DNA of 64,000 nucleotides from an uncultured Candidatus Saccharibacteria bacterium (GTDB lineage Bacteria; Patescibacteriota; Doudnabacteria; UBA920; 2-01-FULL-46-14), in NCBI GenBank assembly GCA_964360335.1, contig CAYHVH010000001.1:23426-87425 (forward strand), given 5' to 3'. The notes under the pieces were generated by a model, which saw only the letters and a program-made list of their open reading frames with translations, searched no databases and was not told the origin of the DNA. A program made the position numbers and the translations under genes. Below, in pieces: positions 133 to 51,827 of this stretch. The stretch's first letter is position 1, and the number at the start of each line of letters is the position of its first letter.

Positions 133-481
133 ACTTGCGCGGTTTGGTTATATTTGGCTCCTTATCATATTTCGGTAAAACTATTTCCTTTATTTTTCCA
201 GACGGCCATTCGGCCACGGGAATACCTAAAGCATAGGCCAAAGCATTGGCTATGGCCACTCCGGTGCGCGTGGCAGAAAACGCCCCCGGGCCAGGATTAA
301 CGAGAATCTTAGTTAGCGCGGCGAGTTTAACTTTTTTCTTGCGCAAAAACTTCTCCAGTTCTGGAAGCAAGTTTTCCGAAAGACCTTCTACTGATTTTTC
401 CAGCCGAGCTAAAGTTTTCTGGTTTTCCAGAAGTGCAAGCGCCAAACGGCCCGATTGCGTTGTATCAATTAATAAATTCAT
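116..481 (-). CDS. Short TsaB/YeaZ-like protein (Kae1/TsaD-family inactive homolog), 121 aa
   Basis: N-terminus MNLLIDTTQSGRLALAL and a PGPGAFSATRTG motif resemble TsaB. The 3' end overlaps repeat copy B1, so the stop is likely supplied by the element. Confidence 0.4.
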   Translation of the reverse strand: MNLLIDTTQSGRLALALLENQKTLARLEKSVEGLSENLLPELEKFLRKKKVKLAALTKILVNPGPGAFSATRTGVAIANALAYALGIPVAEWPSGKIKEIVLPKYDKEPNITKPRKLSFRA

Positions 482-1876: not shown

Positions 1877-2008
1877 GAAACTTCCCTCCTCCCCAGGCGC
1901 CCGGCCTTCGTAGCCACTTCGGCGGAGTAGGCTGGGGAGGAGAAGGAGGAGAGGTCGAACTGTGGATCCTTGTATGCAACCTCTCTCCAGCTCTCCCCTC
2001 GCCAGGGG
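1872..2008. repeat. Family-A element, intergenic (murE start / ruvA stop), two units
   Basis: CCTCCTCCCCAGGCG...GGCTGGGGAGGAG...GGAGAGGTCGAAC and GCAACCTCTCTCCAGCTCTCCCCTCGCCAGGGGAGAGAG. Confidence 0.65.
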
Positions 2009-2021
2009 AGAGAGTTAAGCG

Positions 2022-2606
2022 TTATTGTTTCGCCAAAAGCCGCAACGCTTCCCGAATCCTTTCCTCGGAAGAGCTGAGGTTTTTCGGAATCTCCGCCAAA
2101 GCCTGCCGCGCCTCGGACCGGCTATAACCGAGCGCCAGCAAAACGTCCAGCACGTCGGCATGGGCTTTGGAGAGTTCGCGCAAGTCCTCTTCTTTGCCGC
2201 CCAAGTCCTCGCTGATCTTGTCTTTGAGCTCGACGATGAGCCGCTCGGCGGTCTTGCGGCCAATCCCCGAAACTTTGGTAAAAACGGCGGGGTCCTCATT
2301 AACAATTCCGGATTTGATCATCGCCAAGTCCGCCAGCGACATCACGGACAAAGCGAGCTTCGGTCCCACGCCCGAGACCGTGAGCAAGAGTTCAAAAAAC
2401 TCGAGCTCCGCAGTGCTGGTAAAACCATAAAGTGCGAGCTGGTCTTCGCGAACATGAGTATGAATATACAGCGAAAGTTTTTTGCCAACCTCCGAGGTCA
2501 AAGAAAGCTGGGGAATGACAAAAACTTTGTAGCCGACATAGTCGGTCGCCAGGATAATGTAGTTTTTGCGGATGGCTTTAACGGTGCCGGAGAGATAGCC
2601 GATCAT
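2022..2606 (-). CDS. ruvA: Holliday junction DNA helicase RuvA
   Basis: 194 aa. OB-fold N-terminus MIGYLSGTV, HhH motifs (LLTVSGVGPKLA, FTKVSGIGRKTAERL) and a C-terminal RuvB-binding domain. Confidence 0.85.
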   Translation of the reverse strand: MIGYLSGTVKAIRKNYIILATDYVGYKVFVIPQLSLTSEVGKKLSLYIHTHVREDQLALYGFTSTAELEFFELLLTVSGVGPKLALSVMSLADLAMIKSGIVNEDPAVFTKVSGIGRKTAERLIVELKDKISEDLGGKEEDLRELSKAHADVLDVLLALGYSRSEARQALAEIPKNLSSSEERIREALRLLAKQ

Positions 2607-2686
2607 GCAGGTATTATGCCTATTGAATAAGTTTTTTTCAATCTGCTAAAATGAAAGTTGACCCTGTCTAATCTAATGCTAATGCT

Positions 2687-2785
2687 GCCCTCTCCAGGCG
2701 TGGAGAGGGACTAAGGGAGAGGTCGCATTTGCGACATAATAAACGACCTCTCTTCCGGCCTCTCCCCACGCCTGGGGAGAGGAGA
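2687..2785. repeat. Family-A element, intergenic (ruvA / uvrB), two half-units; its 3' end GGAGAGGAGAAG lies at the Shine-Dalgarno position for uvrB
   Basis: CTCTCCAGGCGTGGAGAGGGACTAAGGGAGAGGTCGC ... CGACCTCTCTTCCGGCCTCTCCCCACGCCTGGGGAGAGGAGAAG, followed by the uvrB ATG at 2794. Confidence 0.65.
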
Positions 2786-2793
2786 AGTAGCTT

Positions 2794-4785
2794 ATGCAGA
2801 AATTCAAACTCGTCTCAAAATTTCAACCCGCGGGCGACCAACCCCAAGCGATTGAAAAACTCGTGGCTGGCATCAAAAAAGGCCATAATTTTCAAACCCT
2901 CCTGGGCGTTACCGGCAGCGGCAAGACTTTTACCATGGCCAACGTGATCCAGGAAATCCAAAAACCCACGCTGGTGATTTCCCATAACAAAACTTTGACT
3001 GCCCAGCTCGCCTCGGAATTCCAGGAATTTTTCCCGCAAAACGCCGTGCACTATTTCGTTTCCTATTACGACTACTACCAACCCGAGGCATATATTCCCC
3101 GCACTGACACTTATATTGAAAAAGAAACCGATATTAATGAGGAAATTGATAGGTTGCGAAATGCGGCCACCATGTCTTTACTGACCCGCAAAGACGTCCT
3201 GATTGTCGCCTCGGTATCCTGCATTTACGGCCTCGGCAACCCCAGCAACTATTTGGATTTGAGTCTGCTCCTCGAAACCGGCAAACCCTACAAGCGGGAA
3301 AAGCTTTTGCGGCGAATAGTGGATCTGCAGTACCTGCGCAATGACTTGGAACTGCGCCGAGGGACTTTCCGCTTGCGCGGCGACGTCTTGGAAATTGTGC
3401 CGGCGCACGAGGACCGAGTATTAAGATTGGACTTTTTTGGCGACACTCTGGAAAAAATCACGGAGTTCGAGGCGCTCACCGGCGAGGACGAAACAAAGCA
3501 CGACTCCTACCGCCTGTTTCCGGCCAAGCACTTCATCACCCCACACGACAAACTGCTTTTGGCCGCCGACAACATCCGCCAGGAACTGCGGGAGAGACTG
3601 CAGTATTTCAAAAGCCGCAATCTCCTTCTCGAAGCCCAGCGCATCGAACAGCGCACGAATTTCGACCTTGAGATGATGCTCGAGACCGGCTACGTCAACG
3701 GGATTGAAAATTACTCGCGACAGTTAGATTTCCGCAAACCGGGGGAACCACCCTCCACCCTCCTTGACTATTTTCCCGACGACTTTCTGTTGTTTATTGA
3801 CGAATCGCACATGACCGTGCCGCAAATTCGCGGGATGTATGAGGGAGATCACTCCCGCAAAAAAAACCTGGTCGACTACGGCTTTCGGCTGCCTTCGGCT
3901 CTGGACAACCGGCCTCTGAAATTTTCCGAGTTTTTGAAGAAAGTTGGCCGGGCGGTTTTTGTCTCGGCGACTCCGGCAGAATACGAAATCAACAAGTCCC
4001 GCCAAATCGTAGAACAGCTCGTGCGCCCGACGGGGCTCTTGGACCCGGAGGTTGAGGTCCGTCCAACCCGCCACCAGATTGACGACCTGCTCGAGGAGAT
4101 TCGGAAGCGCACCGACCAGGCCCAGCGCGTATTGGTAACGACTCTGACCAAAAAAATGGCCGAGGAACTCTCTGAGTACCTCAAGGAAATTGGGGTGAAG
4201 ACTCACTATCTGCACTCGGACATTGACACCTTTGAGCGCCTCGAGATCCTGCGCGATCTGCGCCTCGGAGTTTACGATGTAGTGGTGGGGATTAACCTTT
4301 TGCGGGAGGGCTTGGATCTGCCGGAAGTCTCCCTGATAGCGATCTTGGACGCTGACAAAGAAGGATACTTGCGCTCAAAAACCGCACTACTGCAGGTGAT
4401 GGGCCGCGCCGCGCGACATTTAGACGGCCACATCATCATGTACGCTGACCGCGTGACTGGCTCGATGCGCTCCGCCATGGACGAAGTCCAAAGACGCCGC
4501 AAAATCCAGGAGGAGTATAACCGGCGTCACGGCATTACCCCGCAGAGTATTATCAAAGAGGTCCGGGAAAGCCGTTTGGCGGGGGCAAAAATCGCTCCTG
4601 CAGAACAAAAAACTGAAATCGATTACGCCAAGCTCGACAAAAAAGAACTAAGATATTACCTTGAGGAGCTCAAAGACCGCATGGATTTGGCCTCAAAAAA
4701 TCTGGAATTTGAAAAAGCCGCCGCGCTAAGAGACGAGATCATCGAAATAAATAAAAGCCTCAAACGGACGAGGCATAAAGTTTGA
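2794..4785 (+). CDS. uvrB: Excinuclease ABC subunit B
   Basis: 663 aa. Walker A GVTGSGKT, helicase motifs, a UvrB interaction domain and a C-terminal UVR domain ([14 protein letters not shown]). Confidence 0.95.
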
Positions 4786-5177: not shown

Positions 5178-6410
5178 TCAACCCCGGAACAGCTTGTAAA
5201 GTTTAAACAGCGCGTAAAATGCCCGATTCAAAACCAGATCCCGGGCGCCGACACCGTAGACTTCCTTGCCCGTCACTCCGGCCGTGACATACCGGGTTTT
5301 GAACCGGGTAATCCCAGCCCAAGGATGGTCTGGTTCGTTCGGCGGGGCGACGCCCCACAAATCATACCATTTTTTGCCGCGTTGTCTGCTTAATTTGATT
5401 GCTTCCCAAAGGACAAGGCTTGGAGCATTGGCGGTTCGCTCTTTGGCAGAAGAAGCCGCGTACAAATAAGTTCCGGAATCACCGAAAAGCATAATGACGG
5501 CGGCAGCCAGGATTTCGCCTTGATATTCGCCGACCAGAAGCTCGGCGTGGGGTGCAAGCGACCTCTCCTTTGGTCCCTCCCCACGCCTGGGGAGGGAAGA
5601 AGAAAATAAAGCTTCTACTTGCGGAGTATTTGACCCCTCCTCAACCCTCCCCTCCTGCCCGTCCGGCAGGCGGGCGTCAGGAGAGGGAGTCATGAAGATA
5701 TCACGGAATTTCATGAATCGCTCGCGCGGCCAAGATACAATCCCGTCTCGTTTGGTGGTTTCCTCCAAAAGCTTCAAGAAAATTTCAAAAGCCCCTTTGT
5801 CTTGAGTCGCTACTCGCACTTTTACTCCCCTGCGCTGGGCGAGGCGGATATTGTAGCGGGATTTTTCGTGCATATTCTCCAAGAGTTCTTCCTCGCTTCT
5901 GCTTAAATCCACCAAAATCGTGCGAGCTGGCTCCATCTGCCGAAGCAAAATCTCGGGCTTTCTGAAACCCAGACCTGCAAGCGACCTCTCCTTCAACTCC
6001 TCCCCATCGCCTGGGGAGGAAGAGACAGAAGGATGCGGCGGATTAATTCTCGCCAAAACGGATTTTTCCTGCCGGCCGATTTCTTTGATTTTTTCTATCA
6101 AGGCCTGCATACCCCCTCTCCACTCTCCCCCTAAGTTAGGGGGAGAAAAAGAGGGGGTACCGCCCAATTCATGATTCGTAATTCTTGATTCGTCGAAAAT
6201 CGGTCCCTTCGGCACTTCCAAATAAGTTCTGCCAAACGGCAGCCTTTTTATTACGACTTGCGCTAAAAGCTGGTTCTGGATATCGAAGCGATAAACTTTG
6301 TGGCCGAGAGCGGCTTGAAACTGCCCCCATTGCCAGGACTGGAGGAAAGAGGAAGGAGAAGAGTTCCTGGCTACAAATTCATTCCAATTATCTTTAGAAA
6401 GTAGATTCAT
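5178..6410 (-). CDS. FemAB-family peptidoglycan aminoacyltransferase (lipid II amino-acid transferase-like) carrying two in-frame repeat insertions
   Basis: FemAB/FemX-like N-terminus (SSFLQSWQWGQF) and C-terminal GNAT-like fold. 410 aa including inserts. Confidence 0.65.
   Translation of the reverse strand: MNLLSKDNWNEFVARNSSPSSFLQSWQWGQFQAALGHKVYRFDIQNQLLAQVVIKRLPFGRTYLEVPKGPIFDESRITNHELGGTPSFSPPNLGGEWRGGMQALIEKIKEIGRQEKSVLARINPPHPSVSSSPGDGEELKERSLAGLGFRKPEILLRQMEPARTILVDLSRSEEELLENMHEKSRYNIRLAQRRGVKVRVATQDKGAFEIFLKLLEETTKRDGIVSWPRERFMKFRDIFMTPSPDARLPDGQEGRVEEGSNTPQVEALFSSSLPRRGEGPKERSLAPHAELLVGEYQGEILAAAVIMLFGDSGTYLYAASSAKERTANAPSLVLWEAIKLSRQRGKKWYDLWGVAPPNEPDHPWAGITRFKTRYVTAGVTGKEVYGVGARDLVLNRAFYALFKLYKLFRG
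5566..5690. repeat. Family-A element, in frame in the FemAB-like gene (unit 1)
   Basis: GCGACCTCTCCTTTGGTCCCTCCCCACGCCTGGGGAGGGAAGAAG... Encodes ...SLPRRGEGPKERSLAP... Confidence 0.65.
5981..6160. repeat. Family-A element(s), in frame in the FemAB-like gene (unit 2 plus a nested palindrome)
   Basis: GCGACCTCTCCTTCAACTCCTCCCCATCGCCTGGGGAGGAAGAGACAGAAGG (encodes SPGDGEELKERSLAG) and CCCCCTCTCCACTCTCCCCCTAAGTTAGGGGGAGAAAAAGAGGGGG (encodes GTPSFSPPNLGGEWRGG). Confidence 0.65.
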
Positions 6411-6501
6411 AATTATACGCTCGCCATTCTGGAGTCCCGCCCTCTGGCGGGACGATAGAATCCTAGAGATCCTTCCCCCTCGACTACGCTCGGGGTCAGG
6501 A

Positions 6502-9276
6502 TTACACGGCTTGCCGTGTCATCTCTTCCCAATTATCGCCGAACTTGGCTTCCACGACGAGGGGAACTTTGAGTTTATAAATATTCTGCATGATTTTGGT
6601 AATTTTTCCGGCATAGTCATCAACTTTCTTTTCGGCTATTTCAAACACCAGCTCATCGTGAACCTGTAAGAGCAACCGGCAATCCTCGCGAGACGTCAAA
6701 TTTTCCTCCGCCAGTTTGTTCATCGCCAGTTTGATAATATCCGCCGAAAGCGATTGAAACGGCATGTTGATGGCCGCTCGTTCAGCAGCGGCGCGAACTG
6801 GCCACTGCGAAGAATTAATCTCGGGGAGATACCGGAGTCGCCCGAGTTCGTTTTTGACGTAGCCCGAGCGGCGCGTTTCCCCAACTATTTCCTCAAGGTA
6901 GTGAGTCAAGCTGTGATAGGTTTCGAAATATTTATCGATAAAATCTTGGGCTTCGCCTTGGGACACTCCTTTGATCCGGCTCTTGAGACCATAAGCGGAA
7001 AGGCCGTAGAGTACCCCGAAATTTATGGTCTTGGCATCTCGGCGCATTTCCGGGGTAATTTCGACCTCTCCTCCAGCTCCTCCCCTCGCCAGGGGAGAAG
7101 GGAGGGATTGAAAAATCTCGCGAGCTGTTGCTTCGTGAATGTCGCCGCCTTCGTGAAAAACTTTAATCATTTTCTCGTCGCCCGACAAATGGGCGGCCAG
7201 ACGAAGCTCAATCTGGGAGTAGTCCACGGACAGCAATTTATACCCTGTTTCGGCAACGAACGCCCCGCGGATTTTTCGACCAAACTCGGTGCGGATCGGA
7301 ATGTTCTGGAGATTCGGTTCGCTGGAGGACAATCGCCCGGTGGCAGTAACTGTCTGGTTAAAACTTGTGTGTAGCCGCCGCGTTTGAGGACTAACCAAAT
7401 CCGGCAAGGCATCTAGATAAGTATTTTTAAGTTTCGTTAATTCCCGCCATTCCGATATCAAATCAATAATCGGATGCAATCCTTTGAGCTTCTCGAGTTC
7501 CGTGGCCGCCGTGGACAGGCCGGTTTTGCCTTTTTTGAGCTCCTCGGTGGGAATCCCCAATTTCTCAAATAATATCTGTTTTAGCTGGATCGGGCTGCCG
7601 ATGTTAAATCTCTCGCCCGAAAGCCGGTAAATCTTCTGTTCGAGTTTCGAAATCTCCGCCGTGGCCTCGGCCGACAACTCCTTCAAGCACGACGGATTGA
7701 CCTTTACTCCCCAGCGTTCCATTTCCGCCAAAACTCTCACCAGCGGCATTTCGATCTCATAAAAAATTTTCTCTAAATCTTTACTTCTTAGCTCTTTTTC
7801 CAGTTTTTGTTTTAGCCGGAAAGTGTAGTCCACATCCTCGCAACAGTAAGCCGCGACCTCTCGGACCGGCACTTCGGCCATGCTAATCTCTTTTTTGCCT
7901 TCGCCAATCAAACTTTTAATCGGGGTTTTCCGGAAGCCAAACTCGGTAAAACTTAGGGTGTCCAAATCGAAATTCCGCGCCCCGGGGTTTAAAAGATAGG
8001 CGGCAATCATCGTGTCAAAAAACTCTCCTCCCAAAATCACTCCGGCCTTTTGCAAAATCAAATAATCATACTTGAGATTATGGCCGATTTTCAGAACTTC
8101 CGGATTCTGCAAAATTTCCGTGAGGGCCGGGGAAATCATCGCCGCCGGCAGGTAAAAGGCCCGGTTTTCTTGCCACGCCAACCCGAGGCCGAGAAGCTCA
8201 GCCTGCATCGGGTGAACCGAGGTCGTTTCGGTATCAATAGCGATTTGTTTCTGCCTCTCAAGCTCAGTAATGATGCTTTGGAATTTTTTCGGCGTATCAA
8301 GGAGCTGATAGTCAAATTCCTCCTCGCCCCCTCTGCTCCCTCGAGCTCTACTTAGGGCAGGCTCATGAGGGGAGTGGGGGATGTCAGTCTTTGGCAGTTT
8401 ATCCAAAAGTGAACGGAACTCCAGCTCCTGAAAAAGTTTAAAAACTTTCTGTTCATCATAAGCCAGAAGCCGGGCCTGGGTTAAATCCAGTTTCACCGGG
8501 AGGTTTTTGACGATTGTTGCCAATTTTTTGGAAATTTCCGCATCCGCCCGGTGTTCCAGAAGCAGTCGAGCGACGCGCGGCTTGAGCGCCGAGTGGTCTT
8601 TGCCGACTAAATATTTATAAATTCCTTCCAAGGTCTTAAATTTTTGCAGGAGCTCGGTCGCGGTTTTTTCCCCGATGCCTTTGACCCCGGGAATGTTATC
8701 CGAAGGATCACCGCGCAGGGCTTTAAAATCTAGAAGTTCCTCGGGTCTGAGGCCATATCGCTCCCGAACCGCCCCCACGTCATAAAGTTTGGTTTCGGTC
8801 AAGCCTTGCTTAGGAGCATAGACTTTCACCCGTTCGTCTACTAATTGCAGGGTGTCCAAATCCCCGGTTAAAATCACAGTATCCAAATCTTCCTGCTTCC
8901 GGGCTTTTTCGGCCAGAGTGCCAATCAAATCATCAGCTTCATAACTTTCCAGTTCATAGACTGGAAGATTAAAAGCTCTGACCAATTCTTTGACGCGGGG
9001 AATTTGCTCATAAAGTTCGGCGGGGGCTTTAATTCTTGTTGCCTTATAAGGCTCATAAATTTTTTCCCGGAAAGTTGGCGCCGGAAAGTCAAACGTCACT
9101 GCCACGTACTCGGGCCGCAGTTCTTTGAGGGCTTTCAAAAACAACAGGGCAAAACCGTAAACGCCGTTTACTGGCTCGCCCTTTTTGGTGGACAGGTGAG
9201 GAATCGCGTGAAAGCCGCGGTGGACCAAAGCATTGCCGTCTACCAATAATAAAACTGGTTTATCTTTGCTGGACAT
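6502..9276 (-). CDS. polA: DNA polymerase I
   Basis: 924 aa. 5'-3' exonuclease, 3'-5' exonuclease-like and polymerase domains (motif RRDAKTINFGVLYG, and the motif-C region SQIELRLAAHLSGDE). Two in-frame repeat insertions. Confidence 0.95.
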   Translation of the reverse strand: MSSKDKPVLLLVDGNALVHRGFHAIPHLSTKKGEPVNGVYGFALLFLKALKELRPEYVAVTFDFPAPTFREKIYEPYKATRIKAPAELYEQIPRVKELVRAFNLPVYELESYEADDLIGTLAEKARKQEDLDTVILTGDLDTLQLVDERVKVYAPKQGLTETKLYDVGAVRERYGLRPEELLDFKALRGDPSDNIPGVKGIGEKTATELLQKFKTLEGIYKYLVGKDHSALKPRVARLLLEHRADAEISKKLATIVKNLPVKLDLTQARLLAYDEQKVFKLFQELEFRSLLDKLPKTDIPHSPHEPALSRARGSRGGEEEFDYQLLDTPKKFQSIITELERQKQIAIDTETTSVHPMQAELLGLGLAWQENRAFYLPAAMISPALTEILQNPEVLKIGHNLKYDYLILQKAGVILGGEFFDTMIAAYLLNPGARNFDLDTLSFTEFGFRKTPIKSLIGEGKKEISMAEVPVREVAAYCCEDVDYTFRLKQKLEKELRSKDLEKIFYEIEMPLVRVLAEMERWGVKVNPSCLKELSAEATAEISKLEQKIYRLSGERFNIGSPIQLKQILFEKLGIPTEELKKGKTGLSTAATELEKLKGLHPIIDLISEWRELTKLKNTYLDALPDLVSPQTRRLHTSFNQTVTATGRLSSSEPNLQNIPIRTEFGRKIRGAFVAETGYKLLSVDYSQIELRLAAHLSGDEKMIKVFHEGGDIHEATAREIFQSLPSPLARGGAGGEVEITPEMRRDAKTINFGVLYGLSAYGLKSRIKGVSQGEAQDFIDKYFETYHSLTHYLEEIVGETRRSGYVKNELGRLRYLPEINSSQWPVRAAAERAAINMPFQSLSADIIKLAMNKLAEENLTSREDCRLLLQVHDELVFEIAEKKVDDYAGKITKIMQNIYKLKVPLVVEAKFGDNWEEMTRQAV
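7061..7106. repeat. Family-A element in frame in the polA fingers region
   Basis: TCGACCTCTCCTCCAGCTCCTCCCCTCGCCAGGGGAGAAGGGAGGG. Encodes SLPSPLARGGAGGEVE immediately upstream of the RRxxKxxNFG O-helix. Confidence 0.65.
8318..8385. repeat. Degenerate family-A-like palindromic insert in the polA interdomain linker
   Basis: CCCCCTCTGCTCCCTCGAGC...GAGGGGAGTGGGGG. Encodes HSPHEPALSRARGSRGGEEE. Confidence 0.4.
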
Positions 9277-15846: not shown

Positions 15847-16731
15847 CTACCCCGGCCAATCAGAGTAATCCCAGCCATCTGCAAGGGGAAGGTGTATGTT
15901 GTGTCCGTGGAGAGATTTTGTCGAAAGCTCAAGTCTGTTAAAGTCATTAACTTCTGCCTGAAGGGGCACCCATTGTACTGCAAATCCTTCTTGCTTGAGG
16001 CGGTTGATTTTCCGAGGGTTATTCGTGGCGGCAATCAGACCGATTTTTGTGATATCGAAGTGTTTGAGGATTACCATCTGATCTTCCAGCTCGTCCCACT
16101 CCGGACGGCTGGAAATTCTGACAAACGGCTCCCACCAGCGGTCTATCTTGGCCGGGTCGGGGTCAAGGCCTTTTCGAATGGCGACTATTTCCGCCATTGT
16201 ATCAATCAGCGCGTGGTTCCTCGGCCCCAGTCCTTTTCCAACATGATGCAGAGCGAGAATAATCATCCCGGGGTGACCTTCTCCCCAGCTGTTGGAAACC
16301 CGCTGCTTTGCCATCTCGAACTGATCACCGCAATCACACGTTACCGCCCCTTCAACAATGCCATTAAGGCACATCGATTGGAGACGAACGACTACTGCCT
16401 CGGTTTGGAGGCTGCTGTCATTCCCCAGCCAAAGCACCCGATATTCCCGCTCTGGATGATAACAATAACCAGCGATTTCCGGTGGCTGGCTGTCCCTTTT
16501 CGCAACGTCTGACCCTCCCCAAAAACGGAAATGGGCCTTATTGAACAAGACCGCCCTTTCCTCACGACCCCCCAAGCGGCCGAGCGACCACCATTTCCGA
16601 TGACTTTCTGATCGTCGCAACCGCAACCACTCGTGATAGGGCCCAATCATCTCGAAGCCTTGCTCTTGGTTGGTCACAATACCCTCTAGCTTACCCCAAA
16701 AATCCTGACTGCCCCCCTTATTGTCACTCAT
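15847..16731 (-). CDS. GTP cyclohydrolase II (RibA)-family protein with an N-terminal extension
   Basis: 294 aa. VRLQSMCLNG...CDCGDQFE matches the RibA zinc site (HSECLTG...CDCGFQ). GMIILALHHVGKGLG matches GILLYHRQEGRNIG. AATNNPRKINRLKQEGF matches LTNNPKKVEILTEAG. Confidence 0.6.
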   Translation of the reverse strand: MSDNKGGSQDFWGKLEGIVTNQEQGFEMIGPYHEWLRLRRSESHRKWWSLGRLGGREERAVLFNKAHFRFWGGSDVAKRDSQPPEIAGYCYHPEREYRVLWLGNDSSLQTEAVVVRLQSMCLNGIVEGAVTCDCGDQFEMAKQRVSNSWGEGHPGMIILALHHVGKGLGPRNHALIDTMAEIVAIRKGLDPDPAKIDRWWEPFVRISSRPEWDELEDQMVILKHFDITKIGLIAATNNPRKINRLKQEGFAVQWVPLQAEVNDFNRLELSTKSLHGHNIHLPLADGWDYSDWPG

Positions 16732-16829
16732 TGGGTGTCCTCCTTAATGATTTCGAACATTCGATTCTAGCTGAAACTTACAAACTAGTCAATATTAACC
16801 GACTTCTCAATCTTTTAAACATCAAGTGT

Positions 16830-16885
16830 TGACTTATTTTAGCCAAAAATCTATACTATAATTGTTGTCGGATATTACCGACAAT
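16830..16885 (+). promoter_or_regulatory. Sigma-70-like promoter (TTGACT-N17-TATACT) followed by a 20-bp palindromic operator TTGTCGGATATTACCGACAA overlapping the TrmB start; related half-site at ~16772-16790
   Basis: Read directly from the sequence. The second site CTAGTCAATATTAACCGACT shares the ATATTA(A)CCGAC core. Confidence 0.5.
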
Positions 16886-17653
16886 ATAACGGAAAGCTCC
16901 TACATGCCCCTTGAAATAGATTTGAAACAATTTGGTTTTGACGAGAAAAAAGCCAGGATTTACCTGGCAGTCTTAGAGCTGGGTGAGGCAAAAGCAGCCG
17001 AGGTTGCCAAAAAGTCCGGGATAGAAAGACCAACGTGTTATGACATTTTAAATAAACTGGTCCAAGATGGACTTATTAGCTTCTTCGATAAAAGAGGAGT
17101 CAAGCATTTCGTGGCCGAGGACCCAGAAAAAATCCAAGTCCGGCTCGCAGAAAAAGAAAGGGCTCTTAATCAATTATTGCCGGAATTAAAATCGGTTTAT
17201 AATAGCCTAAAAACAAAACCCAAAATCAAATTCTTTGAAGGCCTTGCGGGAATTAAAACAATCCTGGAAGACACGCTTACTCCCCACGATAAACAGCTCT
17301 TGGGCATTTTATCAATGCGGGATCTCTATGAAATTCCGGGGAAAGAATTTATGGACAACTATGTTAAGAGGAGAATTGAAGCAAAAGTTAAACTCCGGGT
17401 TATTCGGTCAAGGATTAAAGAGGTTGGGGAGACTTGGCCTACTAATCCAAAAGAATACCGAGAATTGCGCTACGCTCCGGAAAAATTATCCTTCCCCGTA
17501 ACAATCTACATTTATGATAATAAGGTTGGAATAATCGGCACCAAAAAAGAAAACTTCGGCATGCTCATTGAGTCAGAGGAATTTTTTGAAACCTTCAAGA
17601 ATCTATTCGAAGTTTTGTGGCTCGTATCAAAAGCTGGGCCGACAAAAGATTAA
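16862..17653 (+). CDS. TrmB-family transcriptional regulator (winged-HTH)
   Basis: N-terminal TrmB HTH (GFDEKKARIYLAVLELGEAKAAEVAKKSGIERPTCYDILNKL). The real start may be the internal Met (MPLEID). AT-rich gene. Confidence 0.7.
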   Translation: MLSDITDNITESSYMPLEIDLKQFGFDEKKARIYLAVLELGEAKAAEVAKKSGIERPTCYDILNKLVQDGLISFFDKRGVKHFVAEDPEKIQVRLAEKERALNQLLPELKSVYNSLKTKPKIKFFEGLAGIKTILEDTLTPHDKQLLGILSMRDLYEIPGKEFMDNYVKRRIEAKVKLRVIRSRIKEVGETWPTNPKEYRELRYAPEKLSFPVTIYIYDNKVGIIGTKKENFGMLIESEEFFETFKNLFEVLWLVSKAGPTKD

Positions 17654-17682
17654 ATTTTCTGGACTAGGAAAAGGGGATAAAA

Positions 17683-17717
17683 AGGAGACAGACTACAACG
17701 CGGTCTGTCAGCGCTAA
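17683..17717 (-). repeat. 36-bp hairpin repeat copy 2; terminator of the minus-strand OMP-like gene
   Basis: Identical to 15803-15838. On the minus strand the hairpin is followed by TCCTTTTTAT. Confidence 0.7.
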
Positions 17718-18295
17718 AAACGAACAGTGGTGATGACGTAGGTCCGGAAGAAACGCGGCTCGCCTTGGTTGCGGAAATGGTAAGTCCCAGTTACCCAAAG
17801 GGTAACAGGACCTCGGTTTACGAGCCGAAAGCTGAGTCGCGAGCCACCGCCGTAGGAATCACGCCCACGCTTGTGAAGGTTTTCCGTCTCCACCCCAATC
17901 TTCCATCTGTCGCTTAACCGATAGTCAAATATGACGACTTCGGAAAAACTCCTGCGACTGGAAACGGGATACAACTCAAGGTAGAGATTGGCGCGTTTGC
18001 CGAAATCCCGGTTGAAACGGAAATTGAGCTGCCACTGGTGTCCCTTGGTGCTCCACTGCCGCTGGACGAGTGTCTCGAGCCACCAGTTATTGCGCTTGTA
18101 TCCCAGTCCGCCGAAGAGGTTGATGTTGTCTGGCTGCGCCTGCCGTACATTGCCAATCATCCACCCTGCAAGAAACCAGTTCTCGCCCAGCTTTTTGGTG
18201 ATATGCACTGGCGTCCGCAACTGAACAACATGATCCTGGGCCAAGAGGGGAGAGCCAAAAAGAAGAGCGAGTATCAGCAGCGTTGCTTTGCCCAT
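17714..18295 (-). CDS. Secreted beta-barrel-like protein (OmpW/OMP-beta-barrel-like), 193 aa
   Basis: Signal peptide MGKATLLILALLFGSPLLAQ, alternating amphipathic beta-strand pattern, and a C-terminal aromatic residue (..TTVRF). Confidence 0.4.
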   Translation of the reverse strand: MGKATLLILALLFGSPLLAQDHVVQLRTPVHITKKLGENWFLAGWMIGNVRQAQPDNINLFGGLGYKRNNWWLETLVQRQWSTKGHQWQLNFRFNRDFGKRANLYLELYPVSSRRSFSEVVIFDYRLSDRWKIGVETENLHKRGRDSYGGGSRLSFRLVNRGPVTLWVTGTYHFRNQGEPRFFRTYVITTVRF

Positions 18296-18395: not shown

Positions 18396-19148
18396 ATGTA
18401 TCAAGAAACGTTTGAGAGCTTAGGTTTAAGCCCCAATGAAGCGAAAATCTACGAAGCCCTGGTGGAAAAAGGGGAGTCCTCGGTAAGCGGGGTGGCGGTT
18501 GCTGCAGGCGTGCACCGCCGCAATGCCTACGATGCCATTCGGCGCCTCATTGATAAGGGCCTGTGCTTTGAAATCTTTTCTTCTGGAGAAAATCGATACA
18601 ATGCGGTCGATCCGGATAAACTCACTGAACTTGTGGCCGAGAGGCAGCAAAAATTAGAAAGTATTCTTCCGGAGCTAAAAAAGAAGTTTACCAAACGCAT
18701 TGCCCCCGAGGAAGCCTACATTTACCGGGGGTACGAGGGCCAAAAAAATATCTGGCGCGATTTGCTGCGGGTCGGGGGCGAGAGCTACGTGGTGGGGGCA
18801 AAAGGCGGATGGTTTGAGCCGAACTTGCAGGCAAGCCGTATCGAATTTTTCAAAGAAGCCAACCGAAAAAAAATCAAATTCTTTCAGCTTTTCGACCATG
18901 AAATAAAAATTCAATTTCCGCGGTTCGTCAAAGACTATCCCGGGACGCTTAAATCTCGGTATTTGCCCAAGGAATACTCCACTAATTCGCTGATTCATGT
19001 CTTTGGGGACTACTTCATTACCTATACGGGCTTGGAACTTATGAGGCTAAGTGAAAAAACAGTATTTTTTGTGATCAAAAGCCGCGACCTCGCGGAAAGC
19101 TACCGGACCTGGTTTTGGTACATGTGGGAACAATCTTCGGAAAAGTAG
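18396..19148 (+). CDS. TrmB-family transcriptional regulator (second paralog)
   Basis: N-terminal HTH (LGLSPNEAKIYEALVEKGESSVSGVAVAAGVHRRNAYDAIRRLIDKGL). Upstream TTGACA-N16-TATATT and palindromes GTGGTCAATACCAC / GGTGATAATTAACACC. Confidence 0.7.
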   Translation: MYQETFESLGLSPNEAKIYEALVEKGESSVSGVAVAAGVHRRNAYDAIRRLIDKGLCFEIFSSGENRYNAVDPDKLTELVAERQQKLESILPELKKKFTKRIAPEEAYIYRGYEGQKNIWRDLLRVGGESYVVGAKGGWFEPNLQASRIEFFKEANRKKIKFFQLFDHEIKIQFPRFVKDYPGTLKSRYLPKEYSTNSLIHVFGDYFITYTGLELMRLSEKTVFFVIKSRDLAESYRTWFWYMWEQSSEK

Positions 19149-46145: not shown

Positions 46146-46212
46146 GTGGTCTTCCGGCCGGAAAGGTGCAAACCTTTCCGGCCGCGTTTTTTTTCGATAT
46201 AATTGCAATACT

Positions 46213-48270
46213 ATGGCTGACCTTGTGAAACTCAAAGAACTCGCCAGGCTCGTTCGTTACTATATTCTGGTCTCGACCACGGCCGCGGGGTCCGGGCACC
46301 CAACATCTTCGCTGTCTGGCGTGGAACTGATGACGGCATTGATGTTTGGCGGCTATTTTCGCTTTGACTTGAATCGTCTGGGATACGCAAACAATGACCG
46401 GCTGATTTTCTCCAAAGGCCATGCCTCGCCCCTCTTCTATGCGCTGTGGGCAGCGGCTGGCGCGCTGACGGAAAAAGAGCTTTTGACTTTGCGCAAATTT
46501 GGCAGCCCTTTGGAGGGGCATCCTACCCCGGCATTTCCCTATACCGAAGCGGCGACAGGCTCTTTGGGACAAGGGTTGTCAATTGGCGTGGGCATGGCCC
46601 TTAATGCCAAGCTTGACCGGCTTCCCTATCGCACTTATGTGCTTTTGGGGGACAGTGAAATGGCCGAGGGCTCGCAATGGGAGGCGATTCAGCTCGCCGC
46701 GTACTATAAACTTGATAATTTGGTCGGCGTTCTCGATGTCAATCGTTTGGGTCAACGAGGGCAGACGATTTACGGGCATGATATTAAAGCTTATCAGAAA
46801 CGCATCGCGGCGTTCGGGTGGAAGACTATAGTCGTGAATGGGCATAATTTGAATGAGATTTTGAAAGCGTACAAACAGGCGACCCCCTCTTCATCTCCCC
46901 CTATCCCGTTTGACGGGACAGGGGGAGAAAAGAGAGGGGGTGGAAGGCCGGTGATGATCATTGCCAAAACCATTAAAGGTAAAGGAGTTTCATTTATCGA
47001 AAACAAAGAAGGCTGGCATGGGAAGGCGCTTTCCCCGGAGGATTTGAGGAAGGCACTACGAGAATTGGGGAAAGTCGACAAGAAGATGCGAGGAGAGATG
47101 GCAAAGCCGGAGAGAATTAGTAGACCGGAGACAGTAGATAGTAGATCGGAAAGCAAAGAAAAAATTAATTACAAAATCGGAGAAGAGGCGGCAACAAGGA
47201 AGGCTTACGGTAACGCCCTAGTCAGGATTTATCCGAAGTTTCCGAATATCGTAGTCCTCGACGCCGAGGTTTCCAATTCAACTTACGCGGAGATATTCAA
47301 GGAAAAATATCCGGACCGGTTTTTGGAGATGTTTGTGGCGGAGCAGAATATGGTGGGTGCGGCTCTTGGTCTTTCGCGGCGCGGCAAGATCCCGTTTGTT
47401 TCGACCTTTGCCGCGTTCCTGACGCGCGCTTTTGACCAAATCCGAATGAGCCAGTATTCGGCCGCCAACATCAAGTTTGTGGGCTCGCACGCCGGGGTGT
47501 CCATCGGCGAGGACGGGCCGTCGCAGATGGGCCTCGAGGATTTGGCAATGTTTCGCAGTATTTTAGGAAGCGTGGTTTTGTATCCTTCGGATGCGGTTTC
47601 AACCGATAAGCTTGTGGAAGCGGCAGCTAAGCACAAAGGCATTGTCTATATCAGAACAACGCGAATGGAAACCCCGGTGCTTTATTCCCCGGGGCAGGAG
47701 TTCAAAATCGGCGGGAGTAAAGTTTTGCGCCATAGCCGGAAAGACGTGGCGACAGTGCTGGCGGCCGGGATAACATTGCATGAAGCGTTGGCCGCTTATG
47801 AAGAACTCAAGAAGCAAGGGGTTTTGATTCGGGTGATTGACTTGTACAGCATCAAACCGATTGATAAAAAGACATTGACGCAGGCTGCCAAAGAAACGGG
47901 AGCGATAATCACGGTCGAGGACCATTATCCCGAGGGCGGGATTGGGGAAGCGATTAGAAGCGCTCTTTCTGACCTCCCTCCCCAAAGCATGGGGAGGGAT
48001 AAAGGGAGAGGTTTTCCGCCAGCCCGCCCCGCTTCGCTTGGCGAGGCCGGGGAGGCGGATCCGCCTTGGGCAGAGAAACTCCCTGGTAAAACCGACCTCT
48101 CTCCTTCTCTCCCCATCACCTGGGGAGAGGGTAGGATTATCTCTTTAGCGGTGCGCAAAATGCCGCGAAGCGGCAAACCGCAGGAGCTTTTGGATTATGA
48201 AGAGATATCGCGCGATGCTATTATTAAGGAAGTAAAGAGAATTGTTTCTAAATCGTCACCTCGAATTTAA
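46213..48270 (+). CDS. tkt: Transketolase (full length) carrying 2-3 in-frame repeat insertions
   Basis: ThDP-binding motifs (GHPTPAF..., LLGDSEMAEGSQWEA), pyrimidine-binding and C-terminal domains. 685 aa. Confidence 0.9.
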   Translation: MADLVKLKELARLVRYYILVSTTAAGSGHPTSSLSGVELMTALMFGGYFRFDLNRLGYANNDRLIFSKGHASPLFYALWAAAGALTEKELLTLRKFGSPLEGHPTPAFPYTEAATGSLGQGLSIGVGMALNAKLDRLPYRTYVLLGDSEMAEGSQWEAIQLAAYYKLDNLVGVLDVNRLGQRGQTIYGHDIKAYQKRIAAFGWKTIVVNGHNLNEILKAYKQATPSSSPPIPFDGTGGEKRGGGRPVMIIAKTIKGKGVSFIENKEGWHGKALSPEDLRKALRELGKVDKKMRGEMAKPERISRPETVDSRSESKEKINYKIGEEAATRKAYGNALVRIYPKFPNIVVLDAEVSNSTYAEIFKEKYPDRFLEMFVAEQNMVGAALGLSRRGKIPFVSTFAAFLTRAFDQIRMSQYSAANIKFVGSHAGVSIGEDGPSQMGLEDLAMFRSILGSVVLYPSDAVSTDKLVEAAAKHKGIVYIRTTRMETPVLYSPGQEFKIGGSKVLRHSRKDVATVLAAGITLHEALAAYEELKKQGVLIRVIDLYSIKPIDKKTLTQAAKETGAIITVEDHYPEGGIGEAIRSALSDLPPQSMGRDKGRGFPPARPASLGEAGEADPPWAEKLPGKTDLSPSLPITWGEGRIISLAVRKMPRSGKPQELLDYEEISRDAIIKEVKRIVSKSSPRI
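46880..46945. repeat. Family-A-type nested palindrome in frame in tkt
   Basis: CGACCCCCTCTTCATCTCCCCCTATCCCGTTTGACGGGACAGGGGGAGAAAAGAGAGGGGGTGG. Encodes TPSSSPPIPFDGTGGEKRGGG. Confidence 0.65.
47970..48140. repeat. Composite family-A insertion (three palindromic units, ~171 bp) in frame in the tkt C-terminal domain
   Basis: TGACCTCCCTCCCCAAAGCATGGGGAGGGATAAAGGGAGAGG ... GGCGGATCCGCC ... CCGACCTCTCTCCTTCTCTCCCCATCACCTGGGGAGAGGG. Encodes a 57-aa loop. Confidence 0.7.
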
Positions 48271-48328: not shown

Positions 48329-49279
48329 ATGCAAATGGATCGAAATTTGGCTTTAGAATTTGTGCGCGTCACCGAAGCGGCGGCAATTGCCGCCTCCTCC
48401 TGGATTGGCCGCGGCGACAAAAACGCCGCTGATCAGGCCGCGGTTGACGAGATGCGCGCGCGGTTCAACCAGATTGATTTTGCCGGTACGATCGTTATCG
48501 GCGAGGGAGCCAAGGACGAAGCTCCGGAGCTTTACACCGGCGAGAAAGTCGGCACCGGCAAAGGCCCGGAAATGGATCTGGCCGTTGATCCTCTGGAAGC
48601 CACGGACAGTGTGGCCCACGGCCGCTACAACGCGATTTCCGTGATTGTCGCCGGGCCCAAAGGGTCACTCCTTTCTGCGCCGGATACTTATATGAATAAA
48701 CTGGCCGTAGGCAAAGCCGCTGCTAAAGTCGTGGATTTGGATTTTCCCGTAAAACAGAATATTGAGCGCGTGGCCAAGTCCTTGGGCAAAGACATTGGGG
48801 AAATTACGGTCGTGGTTTTGGACCGCGAGCGGCATGAGGGGTTGATCAAGGAAATTCGCGCTGCCGGCGCGCGGGTGCGCACCATCACTGACGGCGACGT
48901 GGCGGGCGCTATCGCTCCGTGCCTGCCCGAGTCGGGGATCGATATGCTTTTGGGAATTGGCGCCTCGACAGAAGCAGTGCTCGCCGCCGCGGCCATGAAA
49001 ATCCTGGGCGGCGAGCTTTTCTGCCGGTTTGCGCCTAAGAATGAGAAAGATCAGAAAGCAATTTTGGAGGCCGGGATCAAAGATCTAAATAAAGTCTACT
49101 CTGCTGAGGACTTGGCAAAGGGCAAGCAGTTAACCTTTACTGCCACGGGCGTGATTGACGGGCCGCTTTTAGAGGGAGTGCGGTTTGCGAAGCACCGCAT
49201 CATCACCCATTCGGTCGTGATGCGCGGGTCGTCTGGTACAATACGGTACATCACCACTCATCATCATACTACTAAGTAA
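48329..49279 (+). CDS. glpX: Fructose-1,6-bisphosphatase class II (GlpX)
   Basis: 316 aa. GlpX N-terminal signature (RVTEAAAIA..GRGDKNAAD.AAV). Confidence 0.85.
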   Translation: MQMDRNLALEFVRVTEAAAIAASSWIGRGDKNAADQAAVDEMRARFNQIDFAGTIVIGEGAKDEAPELYTGEKVGTGKGPEMDLAVDPLEATDSVAHGRYNAISVIVAGPKGSLLSAPDTYMNKLAVGKAAAKVVDLDFPVKQNIERVAKSLGKDIGEITVVVLDRERHEGLIKEIRAAGARVRTITDGDVAGAIAPCLPESGIDMLLGIGASTEAVLAAAAMKILGGELFCRFAPKNEKDQKAILEAGIKDLNKVYSAEDLAKGKQLTFTATGVIDGPLLEGVRFAKHRIITHSVVMRGSSGTIRYITTHHHTTK

Positions 49280-49369: not shown

Positions 49370-50284
49370 ATGAAAAACTTAGGCTATAGTAAACCGCTTT
49401 TCATCCTTGCTTTTGATCACCGCTCGTCCTTTTTTAAGATGTTCGGCTACAAAGAGCCGCTGACCGCGGAGCAGGCTAGAGAAATTAGCGAGGCTAAGTG
49501 GCTGGTCTATGAGGGGTTTAAACAGGCCGTGGCCAAAGACTTTCCGCCGAAAGAAAACGCGGGAGTGTTGGTGGATGAACAGTTTGGGAAAAAGGTACAC
49601 CGTGAGGCTCAACCCGCCGGTTATTTGACGCTTTTGACTCAAGAGAAAAGCGGGCAAGATGAGTTTGACTTTGAGTATGGCGAACAGTTTGCCGAGCATA
49701 TTGAAAATCTTAAACCCAGATTTGCCAAGGTCCTGATTCGCTACAACCCGGAAAGTGATAAAGAGATGAATTTAAGGCAGCGAGAAAGGCTTAAGATTTT
49801 GAGTGGCTGGTGCCATGAGAAAGGTTACAAGTTTTTGATAGAGCCACTCATTCCGGCGACAGAGCAACAGCTTGCCGGGGTCGGAGGGGACCAGGCGCGT
49901 TATGATAACGAACTAAGGCCCGGGCTAATGGTCAAAATGATAGCCGAGCTGCAGGCAGGTGGAGTGGAGCCGGATATCTGGAAGATTGAAGGCCTTGAGG
50001 ATCCGAAACATTACGAAGAGGTGGTGCGCCAAGCCCGGACCGGCGGCCGGGGAGGAGTCTCGGCCGTGGTTTTGGGTCGCGGCGCGGATGCCGCGCAGGT
50101 GGAGAAATGGCTCAAGGCCGGAGCGAAAGTGAAAGGGATTATCGGGTTTGCCATCGGCCGGACGATTTTCTGGGAACCACTCTTGTCGTGGAAAGAGGGG
50201 AAGACGAGTCGAGAGGAAACCGTCAGGAAGATCGCGGAGAATTATAAACATTTTTACAAGGTGTTTGTTAGTAGCACAAAATAG
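49370..50284 (+). CDS. Class I aldolase of the DeoC/LacD superfamily (DUF2090-type; putative fructose-bisphosphate aldolase)
   Basis: 304 aa. FILAFDHRSSF N-terminal motif typical of LacD/DUF2090 TIM-barrel aldolases. Sits between glpX and tal. Confidence 0.6.
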   Translation: MKNLGYSKPLFILAFDHRSSFFKMFGYKEPLTAEQAREISEAKWLVYEGFKQAVAKDFPPKENAGVLVDEQFGKKVHREAQPAGYLTLLTQEKSGQDEFDFEYGEQFAEHIENLKPRFAKVLIRYNPESDKEMNLRQRERLKILSGWCHEKGYKFLIEPLIPATEQQLAGVGGDQARYDNELRPGLMVKMIAELQAGGVEPDIWKIEGLEDPKHYEEVVRQARTGGRGGVSAVVLGRGADAAQVEKWLKAGAKVKGIIGFAIGRTIFWEPLLSWKEGKTSREETVRKIAENYKHFYKVFVSSTK

Positions 50285-50297
50285 TCTGAACCAGAAG

Positions 50298-50921
50298 TTG
50301 ATAGAGAATATTCACAAGTGTTTGCGTACGGTGGTTTCCCAATTTTATTACCGTCCATTTTTGTTTTTTAACGAAATCGGTTTTCATACTTACTGCTACG
50401 CAGTTTTCTATCGCAACCCCGTTTTCGCTAAACTTTTTACAACCCGTGACGGCAAAAACACCAACCTTATCCACCCTGAGTACGGTTCAATAAAAACTAA
50501 AATCGGCGGGAAGGGCAGGGCTTGGTATGATTTAGTTATCCTTAATCCCCGGTTCGTACAAGACAACGATCTTGAAAGAGTCGCCAACAATTATGGAACA
50601 GCGACGAGTTATAAACCGGATGACCTAATGGCGGTTCTAGAATTTAAGTACCTTAGATCTTCTTCTAAAGAATACGTTAGGCAACTGCAAAAAGATTATC
50701 ATTCCTTATCTAACGCTGTTGAAGCACTGAACAAATATATGATTGTTTTTGCCGATGTTAAAAGTCCTTTTGATTATTTTTCGGGTATGCAGTGGGACGA
50801 CCACACAAAACTCGTTTATACGGTTGTTGATTTTAGTCAAATTGGACGAAAGCAGATCAAAGTGCTTATTAAGCCTGATAATTTCTTAAAATTACCGGGA
50901 CAGTGGCTGGCGACGGTCTAA
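50298..50921 (+). CDS. Hypothetical protein in an AT-rich segment; start uncertain (TTG/GTG candidates, or internal ATG near 50628); possible PD-ExK-like motif
   Basis: Marked drop in GC. ...KPDDLMAVLEFKYL... is a PD-(D/E)xK-like pattern. Otherwise no recognisable family. Confidence 0.3.
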   Translation: MIENIHKCLRTVVSQFYYRPFLFFNEIGFHTYCYAVFYRNPVFAKLFTTRDGKNTNLIHPEYGSIKTKIGGKGRAWYDLVILNPRFVQDNDLERVANNYGTATSYKPDDLMAVLEFKYLRSSSKEYVRQLQKDYHSLSNAVEALNKYMIVFADVKSPFDYFSGMQWDDHTKLVYTVVDFSQIGRKQIKVLIKPDNFLKLPGQWLATV

Positions 50922-50930
50922 AAATGCCAT

Positions 50931-51827
50931 ATGAGGCCCTCAAATTTAAAAACCCGCATCTTTCTTGACTCTGGGGATCCGAACGAAACGCGTGAAGTCA
51001 TAAAGTTTCTCGGGTTTTTGGACGGTCAGACGACTAATCCCAGCTTAATTGCCAAGAACCCGGAAACGACCGGCAAGAAATTTTCCCAAAAAGAGATTTT
51101 GGAATTTTATAAAAAAGTCGTGGTTGAGGTTTCCGCTCTGATCCCCGCCGGTTCCGTATCAGTTGAGGTTTACGCTGACCCTTCGACAAGCTCAGGGGAT
51201 ATGTTAGAACAAGGTCGAGATTTTTTTTCTTGGATTCCAAACGCACACATCAAATTTCCGACAACCAAAGAGGGCCTGAAGGCCGCTGAAATTGCCGTTA
51301 AAGAAGGCATGCGCGTCAATTTGACTTTGTGCTTTTCCCAGGAGCAGGCGGCGGCCGTGTACGCGGCAACGAGGGGAGCAAAAAAAGGGCAGGTCTTTGT
51401 TTCGCCGTTTGTCGGGCGGCTGGATGATCGGGGGGAGAACGGGATGCAGCTCGTTGAGAATATTATCAAAATGTATCGGGCGGGAGACGGGCATGTGGAG
51501 GTGCTGACCGCGAGCGTACGGAATCTCAATCATTTGCAGTACGCAATTCAGCTCGGTTCCGACATCCTGACCGCGCTGTTGAAGGTTTTGAAGGAGTGGG
51601 CCGACTCCAATTTCCCTCCCCAGGCGTGGAGAGCCCCCTTCTCTATCCCTCCCCAGGCGAGGGGAGGGATTAAGGGAGAGGTCGAAACGGCAAAGGAGTT
51701 GAAGCCAATACCCTACCGCGAGGTTTCTCTTGACAATCCCTGGCAGGACTACGACATTCGTCATGAGCTGACCGACGTCGGCATTGAAAAGTTTGCCGCG
51801 GATTGGAACGCGCTTATCAAGCCATAA
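50931..51827 (+). CDS. tal: Transaldolase / fructose-6-phosphate aldolase family (TalC/MipB-type) with an in-frame repeat insertion
   Basis: DSGDPNE..., FPTTKEGLKAAE..., NLTLCFS motifs. 298 aa. Confidence 0.85.
   Translation: MRPSNLKTRIFLDSGDPNETREVIKFLGFLDGQTTNPSLIAKNPETTGKKFSQKEILEFYKKVVVEVSALIPAGSVSVEVYADPSTSSGDMLEQGRDFFSWIPNAHIKFPTTKEGLKAAEIAVKEGMRVNLTLCFSQEQAAAVYAATRGAKKGQVFVSPFVGRLDDRGENGMQLVENIIKMYRAGDGHVEVLTASVRNLNHLQYAIQLGSDILTALLKVLKEWADSNFPPQAWRAPFSIPPQARGGIKGEVETAKELKPIPYREVSLDNPWQDYDIRHELTDVGIEKFAADWNALIKP
51611..51685. repeat. Family-A element in frame in tal
   Basis: ...CCCTCCCCAGGCGTGGAGAG...CCCTCCCCAGGCGAGGGGAGGGATTAAGGGAGAGGTCGAA. Encodes FPPQAWRAPFSIPPQARGGIKGEVE. Confidence 0.7.

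Follow-up and report, generated by a model that had tools for sequence, protein, structure and literature searches.

Introduction

Nucleases of the large and well-known PD-(D/E)xK superfamily include stand-alone and effector enzymes of defence systems that work without a methylase. Free-standing homing genes are exemplified by the seg and mob genes of phage T4, and I-Ssp6803I is a homing enzyme that itself belongs to the PD-(D/E)xK type. A further point of comparison is provided by the BamHI-like type IIP restriction endonucleases, among which OkrAI (3odh), BstYI (1sdo), BamHI (1bam) and BglII (1d2i) are the closest solved structures to the protein described here. The DNA under study, referred to below as the window, is a stretch of 64,000 nucleotides (nt) from an uncultured, ultra-small Candidatus Saccharibacteria bacterium of groundwater, placed by GTDB in the Doudnabacteria of the Patescibacteriota (assembly GCA_964360335.1, contig CAYHVH010000001.1, positions 23,426 to 87,425 of the forward strand). 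Within an operon for sugar-phosphate metabolism, between the genes for a DUF2090/DeoC-family aldolase and for transaldolase (tal), it carries an open reading frame (ORF) for 207 amino acids (aa). This ORF is likely to be a horizontally acquired, solitary accessory gene encoding a one-domain DNA endonuclease of predicted PD-(D/E)xK fold.

The gene would be mobile accessory cargo, serving either as a self-sufficient nuclease against foreign DNA or as a selfish, homing-like nuclease, and its product would play no part in sugar-phosphate metabolism. Horizontal gene transfer is reported to be frequent in groundwater Patescibacteria and to include restriction genes (PMC12455944), so the acquisition of such a gene is in itself unsurprising.

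Predicted Fold and Putative Active Site

Modelling with AlphaFold2 (AF2) and an alignment of 113 family members gave a confident structure of the protein (predicted local distance difference test, pLDDT, 94.8; predicted template modelling score, pTM, 0.90); with six close sequences alone the pLDDT was 47 and no confident model was obtained. The predicted structure is a single domain, with no sensor domain, and contains the alpha-beta-beta-beta-alpha-beta core of the PD-(D/E)xK superfamily. Its best structure matches in BFVD are labelled PD-(D/E)XK nuclease or restriction endonuclease, and the top structural matches are restriction enzymes, not resolvases. On its predicted fold and its motif, the protein is a member of the superfamily. 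The original prediction, made from the sequence alone, had suggested a possible nuclease-like motif of this type, and structure prediction returned that fold rather than an unrelated one.

The aligned family shares a catalytic signature, E...HxEY...D...ExK, whose positions are listed in Table 1. Judged from the alignment, the catalytic aspartate is almost certainly D78, one beta-strand before a ‘PDD’ at residues 107-109, because the latter is kept only in the six closest sequences. Within the close subfamily and within subgroup A4, the ExK motif does not vary. Hence, of the PD-ExK core proposed originally, the ExK half (E115-F-K117) was right, and the ‘PD’ half had been misassigned, the aspartate almost certainly being D78 and not one of residues 107-109. 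H59-x-E61-Y constitutes a family-specific extra motif beside the active-site strands, and E26 is a putative metal or water ligand on the first core helix. From the order of the strands, the active-site positions may be equated with E77, D94, E111 and E113 of BamHI.

The signature suggests how the enzyme would work. D78 and E115, together with E26 or E61, would bind Mg2+, K117 would serve to activate or place the water that attacks, and auxiliary roles would fall to E26, E61 and H59. The protein would cleave double-stranded DNA as a Mg2+-dependent endonuclease.

The gene had also been considered a possible remnant of a mobile or defence element. This was not borne out, because the ORF is full length and every conserved residue is intact. 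An alignment of the close homologues has more than 70 invariant columns, and the ratio of nonsynonymous to synonymous substitution (dN/dS) among homologues is 0.10-0.18 where dS is computable; dS is saturated in every pair that includes the window gene, and these values come from homologue-homologue pairs only. On this comparison of sequences, the gene is real and under purifying selection.

Foreign Composition

The ORF (50298-50921) has a GC content of 0.394 and a GC content at third codon positions (GC3) of 0.409, with the GC3 of neighbouring genes lying between 0.57 and 0.64. Mean GC of the window is 0.509 (standard deviation 0.035, calculated over 624-nt segments); only 0.36% of such segments have a GC as low as that of the ORF, and the lowest value of the whole 64 kb (0.381) belongs to the segment starting at 50238. 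Close homologues elsewhere are AT-rich as well (GC 0.25-0.32), mostly below the level of their own flanks. The ORF is compositionally foreign. The fall in GC between the aldolase stop and the tal start, which the original prediction had remarked upon, is thus real (0.394 against 0.509), and the horizontal insertion proposed there is supported by the anomalous composition, by the AT-rich close homologues and by the lack of conservation of the gene at this junction, described below.

The only other compositional outlier of the 64 kb is at 16579-17813 (GC 0.404, with a 624-nt minimum of 0.383). It holds an ORF of 263 aa at 16862-17653 on the + strand, the N-terminus of which resembles the N-terminus of ORF 18396-19148.

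The Aldolase-tal Junction in Relatives and in the Population

The junction was compared in four relatives possessing the same aldolase (L033, L032, L012 and L034), and the nuclease gene is missing from all of them. The contig L033 (GCA_964349925.1; aldolase 69% identical) has the order tkt-glpX-aldolase-tal, with the TAA stop codon of the aldolase directly abutting the ATG of tal. The closest relative, L032 (Candidatus Doudnabacteria, 72%), shares the order tRNA_bind-tkt...aldolase...tal and carries five genes in the aldolase-tal gap (5937-8280), namely two unknowns, a methyltransferase dependent on S-adenosylmethionine (SAM), HicB and HicA; the HicAB pair is unrelated to the nuclease. In L012 (Candidatus Buchananbacteria, 64%), an unrelated hydrophobic extension of 120 aa is fused to the aldolase ORF (5901-6260), with GC 0.425 against 0.54-0.60 in its flanks, and in L034 an unrelated 125-aa ORF (5923-6300) follows the aldolase, after which synteny breaks. 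The junction is thus a recurrent landing site, bare in one relative and occupied by different, AT-richer inserts in others. Relatives that kept the gene here at normal GC would have spoken against an insertion; the synteny comparison recommended with the original prediction gave instead the bare junction of L033 and the other inserts of L032 and L012.

A 232-aa protein encoded at the junction of L032 was considered as a divergent homologue and rejected (hhalign probability 0.1). In L032, tkt and glpX are also separated by an extra gene of 145 aa, and tal is followed by a bAvd/23S-IVP gene.

Contigs of the same groundwater population from four samples are 99.7-100% identical, and all have the gene. 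When the window was compared over 9.5 kb with one of them (L001), 14 of the 20 differences fell within 124 nt in the 5' part of glpX (48364-48487). They are mostly synonymous G/C swaps, and this patch has the appearance of a short tract recombined in from a diverged allele.

Locus, Start Codon and Expression

The interval 50285-50930 extends precisely from the aldolase stop to the transaldolase ATG and is filled by a single + strand ORF, the frame of which is open over 50148..50921 (stop codon 50919-50921). Pfam matches confirmed the co-directional order tkt-glpX-aldolase-ORF-tal-pgi, including a bacterial phosphoglucose isomerase (PGI) and a GlpX fructose bisphosphatase (FBPase), so that the earlier description of a hypothetical gene wedged into this cluster holds in both coordinates and gene order. 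The insert is little more than the ORF, leaving gaps of 13 nt on its 5' side and 9 nt on its 3' side, and for lack of space in these gaps there is no further gene, antitoxin or immunity gene included, beside the ORF.

The scan of the ORF agreed with the earlier remark that its 5' end has TTG and GTG candidates and no conventional ATG nearby in frame. Candidate start codons are TTG 50265 (within the 3' end of the aldolase gene), CTG 50286, TTG 50298 and GTG 50331, of which TTG 50298 is the first canonical start codon 3' of the aldolase stop. The public gene call (P0001, 196 aa) begins at GTG 50331. Translation should start at 50298 or earlier, because the peptide IENIHKCLRTV, encoded 5' of GTG 50331, is kept in homologues, whose ATG lies a few residues further upstream, and is modelled by AF2 as a confident helix.

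The ORF is probably transcribed by read-through of the tkt-glpX-aldolase-ORF-tal-pgi unit, since the flanking gaps leave no space for a promoter of its own, and since a strong terminator-like hairpin occurs only before tkt, with no comparable site on the + strand from tkt to pgi. It may also be translationally coupled to its neighbours in the operon. An Rfam scan of 49800-51400 returned no matches.

Table 1. Features of the window (nucleotide positions within the window, unless residues of the predicted protein are indicated).
Feature	Position	Strand	Remarks
Palindromic repeat copy	1214-1335		
Palindromic repeat copy	2714-2790		
Palindromic repeat copies	5555-5600 and 5980-6030		in ORF 5178-6410
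Palindromic repeat copy	7062		
Palindromic repeat copy	36170-36215		in RuvC-like ORF
Terminator-like hairpin, strong	46155..46184	+	13 bp stem, T-run; just 5' of tkt
Palindromic repeat copies	47976-48140		in tkt
DUF2090/DeoC-family aldolase gene	49370..50284	+	upstream boundary gene; stop 13 nt 5' of TTG 50298
Terminator-like site, weaker	50043-50067	+	10 pairs, poor T-tail; inside aldolase gene
Nuclease-fold ORF	50298..50921	+	207 aa + stop; predicted stand-alone PD-(D/E)xK protein, undescribed family; start uncertain
E26 codon	50373..50375	+	N-terminus of helix 26-39, motif FFNE/FFTE; 90% conserved in 113 sequences
H59-P-E61-Y62 motif	50472..50483	+	strand 58-63; H 92%, E 90%, Y 79% conserved
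D78 codon	50529..50531	+	WYDLVILNP, second core strand 76-82; 98% conserved; putative ‘D’ of PD-(D/E)xK
E115-F-K117	50640..50648	+	VLEFKYL, third core strand 110-119; E 88%, K 63% family-wide; putative ‘(D/E)xK’
D133 codon	50694..50696	+	helix 125-138 after ExK strand; 81% conserved
Predicted helices	residues 2-18, 26-39, 125-138		AF2 model
Predicted strands	residues 58-63, 76-82, 110-119, 143-152, 170-178, 186-192		AF2 model
Transaldolase gene (tal)	50931..51827	+	downstream boundary gene; ATG 9 nt 3' of ORF stop
Palindromic repeat copies	51600-51690		in tal
Palindromic repeat copy	52078		in pgi

An Undescribed Protein Family

A word-indexed search of 5.8 billion proteins recovered only the copy from the same population and four clusters at 51-59% identity. 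An exhaustive search with a hidden Markov model (HMM) of the close alignment extended the family to 160 cluster representatives at E<=1e-3 (33 at E<=1e-10), mostly of 170-260 aa, and a profile of 113 members retrieved 387 proteins, all of them labelled ‘hypothetical’ and none with a precomputed Pfam domain. Members were found in bacteria of the candidate phyla radiation (CPR), Planctomycetes, Actinobacteria and others. Versions of about 300 aa occur in Planctomycetes (Brocadiaceae B188_28370; Novipirellula aureliae Q31b_42890) and also in Kineococcus.

Single-sequence scans of the window protein gave no match in Pfam, PADLOC or NCBIfam, in keeping with the earlier statement that it bears no recognisable family signature, and one weak match in PHROGs (E 0.099). 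The 113 aligned members gave chance-level single matches only in Pfam, PADLOC and PHROGs. The sequence family is therefore not described in the libraries searched, within a superfamily that is itself familiar.

Mobility and Defence Context of the Family

About 12 genomic contexts of family members were inspected. The surroundings of close homologues are unrelated to one another: genes for an NfeD/S49 peptidase, a Bro-N protein and a beta-helix protein adjoin the gene in one case, and others come from short contigs where the adjoining genes are of unknown kind. No close homologue occupies an aldolase-tal junction or is associated with sugar genes.

Three comparisons of contigs bear on mobility. 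The family gene of L010 differs from that of L011 at one of 663 nt, the upstream flanks differ at 45 of 259 nt (83% identical) and the downstream flanks cannot be aligned. The near-identical unit measures 760 nt and extends beyond the gene for about 78 nt on the upstream side and about 25 nt on the downstream side; to judge from these alignments, the pattern is the footprint left by the recent transfer of a one-gene unit. This comparison of gene and flank divergence rests on L010 and L011, the contigs of the window's own population being near-identical throughout. Contigs L028 and L029 are 99.8% identical to L030 across the family gene, which is itself identical in L029 and L030; 74 nt downstream of it, L029 carries a DUF5655 nuclease (1891-3001) and L030 a reverse transcriptase with a 119-aa ORF (997-2618), and similarity resumes beyond this swapped slot, over 64 nt. 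The DUF5655 protein of L029 has a NucS-like N-terminus. On the metagenome contig L031, a copy of the family gene is truncated after about 58 residues.

Distant members keep company with genes of mobile elements and defence. In Brocadia (P0179), the family gene is found with an integrase fragment, an Eco57I-type methylase, a BsuBI/PstI endonuclease, a DUF5655 protein and a DUF2726 protein, and this DUF5655 neighbour is homologous to that of L029 (E 2e-32). A resolvase, YhcG and an M78 peptidase lie near P0260, and the Novipirellula island with P0178 contains an integrase, AlpA, TraG, two WYL regulators and REase-ARP. Another member lies among numerous tiny unknown ORFs, together with a PIN protein. 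The family is thus accessory and associated with mobile or defence regions. A link of the window gene to mobile or defence elements, raised in the original prediction, gains support from the distant homologues in integrase and restriction-modification (R-M) islands and from the cassette footprint of L010 and L011; the window copy itself is not in a defence island and sits in a housekeeping operon. The 289-aa gene upstream of the Novipirellula member was examined as a possible relative and proved unrelated both to the DUF5655 neighbour and to the family.

Weighing the Alternatives

The use to which the predicted nuclease is put may be read in several ways. It may be a solitary defence nuclease that came from a defence island and acts on phage or plasmid DNA in a restriction-like manner, perhaps type IV-like or Shedu-like, a tenable though somewhat unlikely possibility. 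Distant members stand among R-M genes, DUF5655 and DUF2726 nucleases, WYL regulators, REase-ARP and a reverse transcriptase, and homologous DUF5655 nucleases adjoin one close and one distant member; the structural neighbours are restriction enzymes. CPR bacteria are, in addition, mostly without CRISPR, and restriction genes have been documented to pass into groundwater Patescibacteria by horizontal transfer (PMC12455944). However, the window protein and its 113 relatives yielded no meaningful PADLOC match, the single domain comes without methyltransferase or sensor domain, the window copy has its place in a housekeeping operon and not in an island, and no palindrome of 6 bp seems to be avoided in the window, where no 6-mer is absent, though so small a sample is hardly informative. 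A free-standing homing-type endonuclease, on the other hand, would cut the gene-less aldolase-tal junction or another conserved site, and repair would copy its gene in; here no methylase would be needed, because the insertion itself would destroy the target. The precise insertion of a single gene from stop to start codon of conserved genes, at a junction where L033 has none, agrees with such a history, as do the lack of a partner gene, the sporadic distribution of the family, the degenerate copy in L031 and the 760-nt unit of L010 and L011, which keeps the same position relative to an 83%-identical upstream neighbour and resembles a co-conversion tract. Homing is nevertheless likewise somewhat unlikely, given that close homologues occupy other sites and that distant members reside in defence islands or as cargo of integrative and conjugative elements (ICE), not in conserved genes. 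The inserts of L032 and L012 are unrelated, so the junction may be merely permissive; viral collections gave no member of the family, and a Pfam scan no similarity to known homing-endonuclease families. Extended to the family as a whole, homing would make its members previously unrecognised, self-mobilising one-gene PD-(D/E)xK cassettes of cellular genomes, inserting precisely at stop/start junctions of conserved operons and exploiting the read-through of CPR sugar-phosphate operons; this is an unlikely generalisation.

It is very improbable that the gene encodes a housekeeping nuclease of repair or recombination, such as a Holliday-junction resolvase or a mismatch- or structure-specific enzyme, that came to lie in the operon by chance. 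Its fixation in the sampled population would fit such a role, but the gene is in none of the four syntenic relatives, only 5 close clusters exist among 5.8 billion proteins, the composition is foreign and the best structural matches are not resolvases. Hardly credible is a protein that would bind DNA in a non-catalytic or regulatory role linked to sugar metabolism, in the manner of SfsA, or a functionless passenger in decay: the position inside a sugar-phosphate operon might suggest the former, yet the catalytic-type residues are all intact and conserved, dN/dS is well below 1, homologues show no association with sugar genes and the ORF, unlike the remnant in L031, is of full length.

The preferred reading, a horizontally acquired gene for a solitary endonuclease, has several results to contend with. 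As regards the enzyme, a Foldseek search of the model against the PDB was not significant (best E 0.06), sequence searches of the PDB, whether with the protein itself or with the family profile, produced no meaningful match and no solved relative, and K117 is substituted in about one third of the distant members. As regards a defence role, PADLOC-DB v2 gave three single-member, chance-level matches among the 113 members, and no methyltransferase adjoins the gene; a motif screen of the window ORFs, which is a weak test, revealed no convincing DNA methyltransferase. No immunity gene that would let the host tolerate a solitary DNase was found in the window. As regards mobility, the family was not found in IMG/VR with two sub-alignments, nor in INPHARED phages or PLSDB plasmids by tblastn with two members. 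No integrase, flanking repeat or other hallmark of mobile elements was found in the window, and no credible target-site duplication or terminal repeat surrounds the ORF; the lone repeat candidate, a 12-nt near-repeat (TGRGGATCCGAA) within the aldolase and tal genes, is probably due to chance. The four population contigs, moreover, show neither polymorphism in the ORF nor variation in its presence.

Other Features of the Window

A GC-rich palindromic repeat of about 45 nt is dispersed through the window in both orientations (Table 1), with the form CGACCTCTCC..CCCTCCCCA(N4-6)TGGGGAGGGA. For its core CGACCTCTCYYT, 12 occurrences were counted where 1.07 would be expected. A number of copies fall within housekeeping ORFs, where they are translated in the frame of the protein. 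Precisely at the repeats, the window transketolase carries extra stretches of about 50 aa and about 16 aa that three orthologues are without, and tal contains a tandem and inverted pair of 33-nt repeats. Rickettsia palindromic elements insert in frame into genes, and the window repeat, by analogy, appears to resemble them; it may be more unusual than the nuclease gene.

Among 4-bp palindromes, GATC is the most depleted over the whole window (195 occurrences where a Markov model predicts 279; ratio 0.70, z -5.0). Such depletion is common and non-specific, and it may be due to a restriction system that targets GATC and is encoded somewhere in this genome.

Comparison with Known Systems

The finding leaves current understanding unchallenged. 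It places a family of at least 160-387 members, by means of a confident model, in the fold of restriction endonucleases, and compact enzymes of about 200 aa that resemble BamHI have practical interest for the new specificities they may offer. How CRISPR-poor CPR bacteria handle foreign DNA is a question on which solitary nucleases in these organisms have a bearing. The junction, with its predicted nuclease in the window and with a block of HicAB and methyltransferase or a membrane peptide in relatives, illustrates how streamlined genomes take in genes that have no separate promoters. For annotation, the nuclease gene should not be read as a member of the pentose-phosphate or gluconeogenesis pathways.

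BamHI-like restriction endonucleases and the window protein have in common a compact single-domain size of about 200 aa and a core of like topology, in which helix 1, strand 2 and strand 3 bear acidic residues. Identity is 8-11%, and no sequence profile links the window family to any PDB chain. The window family differs in its additional conserved H-x-E-Y on the first strand, and the window gene in having no methyltransferase beside it. Homology and an adjacent methylase were both looked for and neither was found, so that membership of an R-M system or of the BamHI family is not demonstrable.

Like distant members of the window family, the defence nucleases Shedu SduA, NucC, Can2/Card1 and HamA have their genes in defence islands. 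These effectors possess sensor or regulatory domains or partner genes (cyclases, CARF, HamB), whereas the window protein is a bare domain with no partner in the window and no match in PADLOC.

Homing genes differ from the window family in that the latter was not found in phage or viral collections and has its homologues at unrelated sites. The likeness lies in the presence of a single nuclease gene between conserved genes that is not at the same site in relatives, and in a sporadic spread accompanied by near-identical copies in diverged flanks and by degenerate copies.

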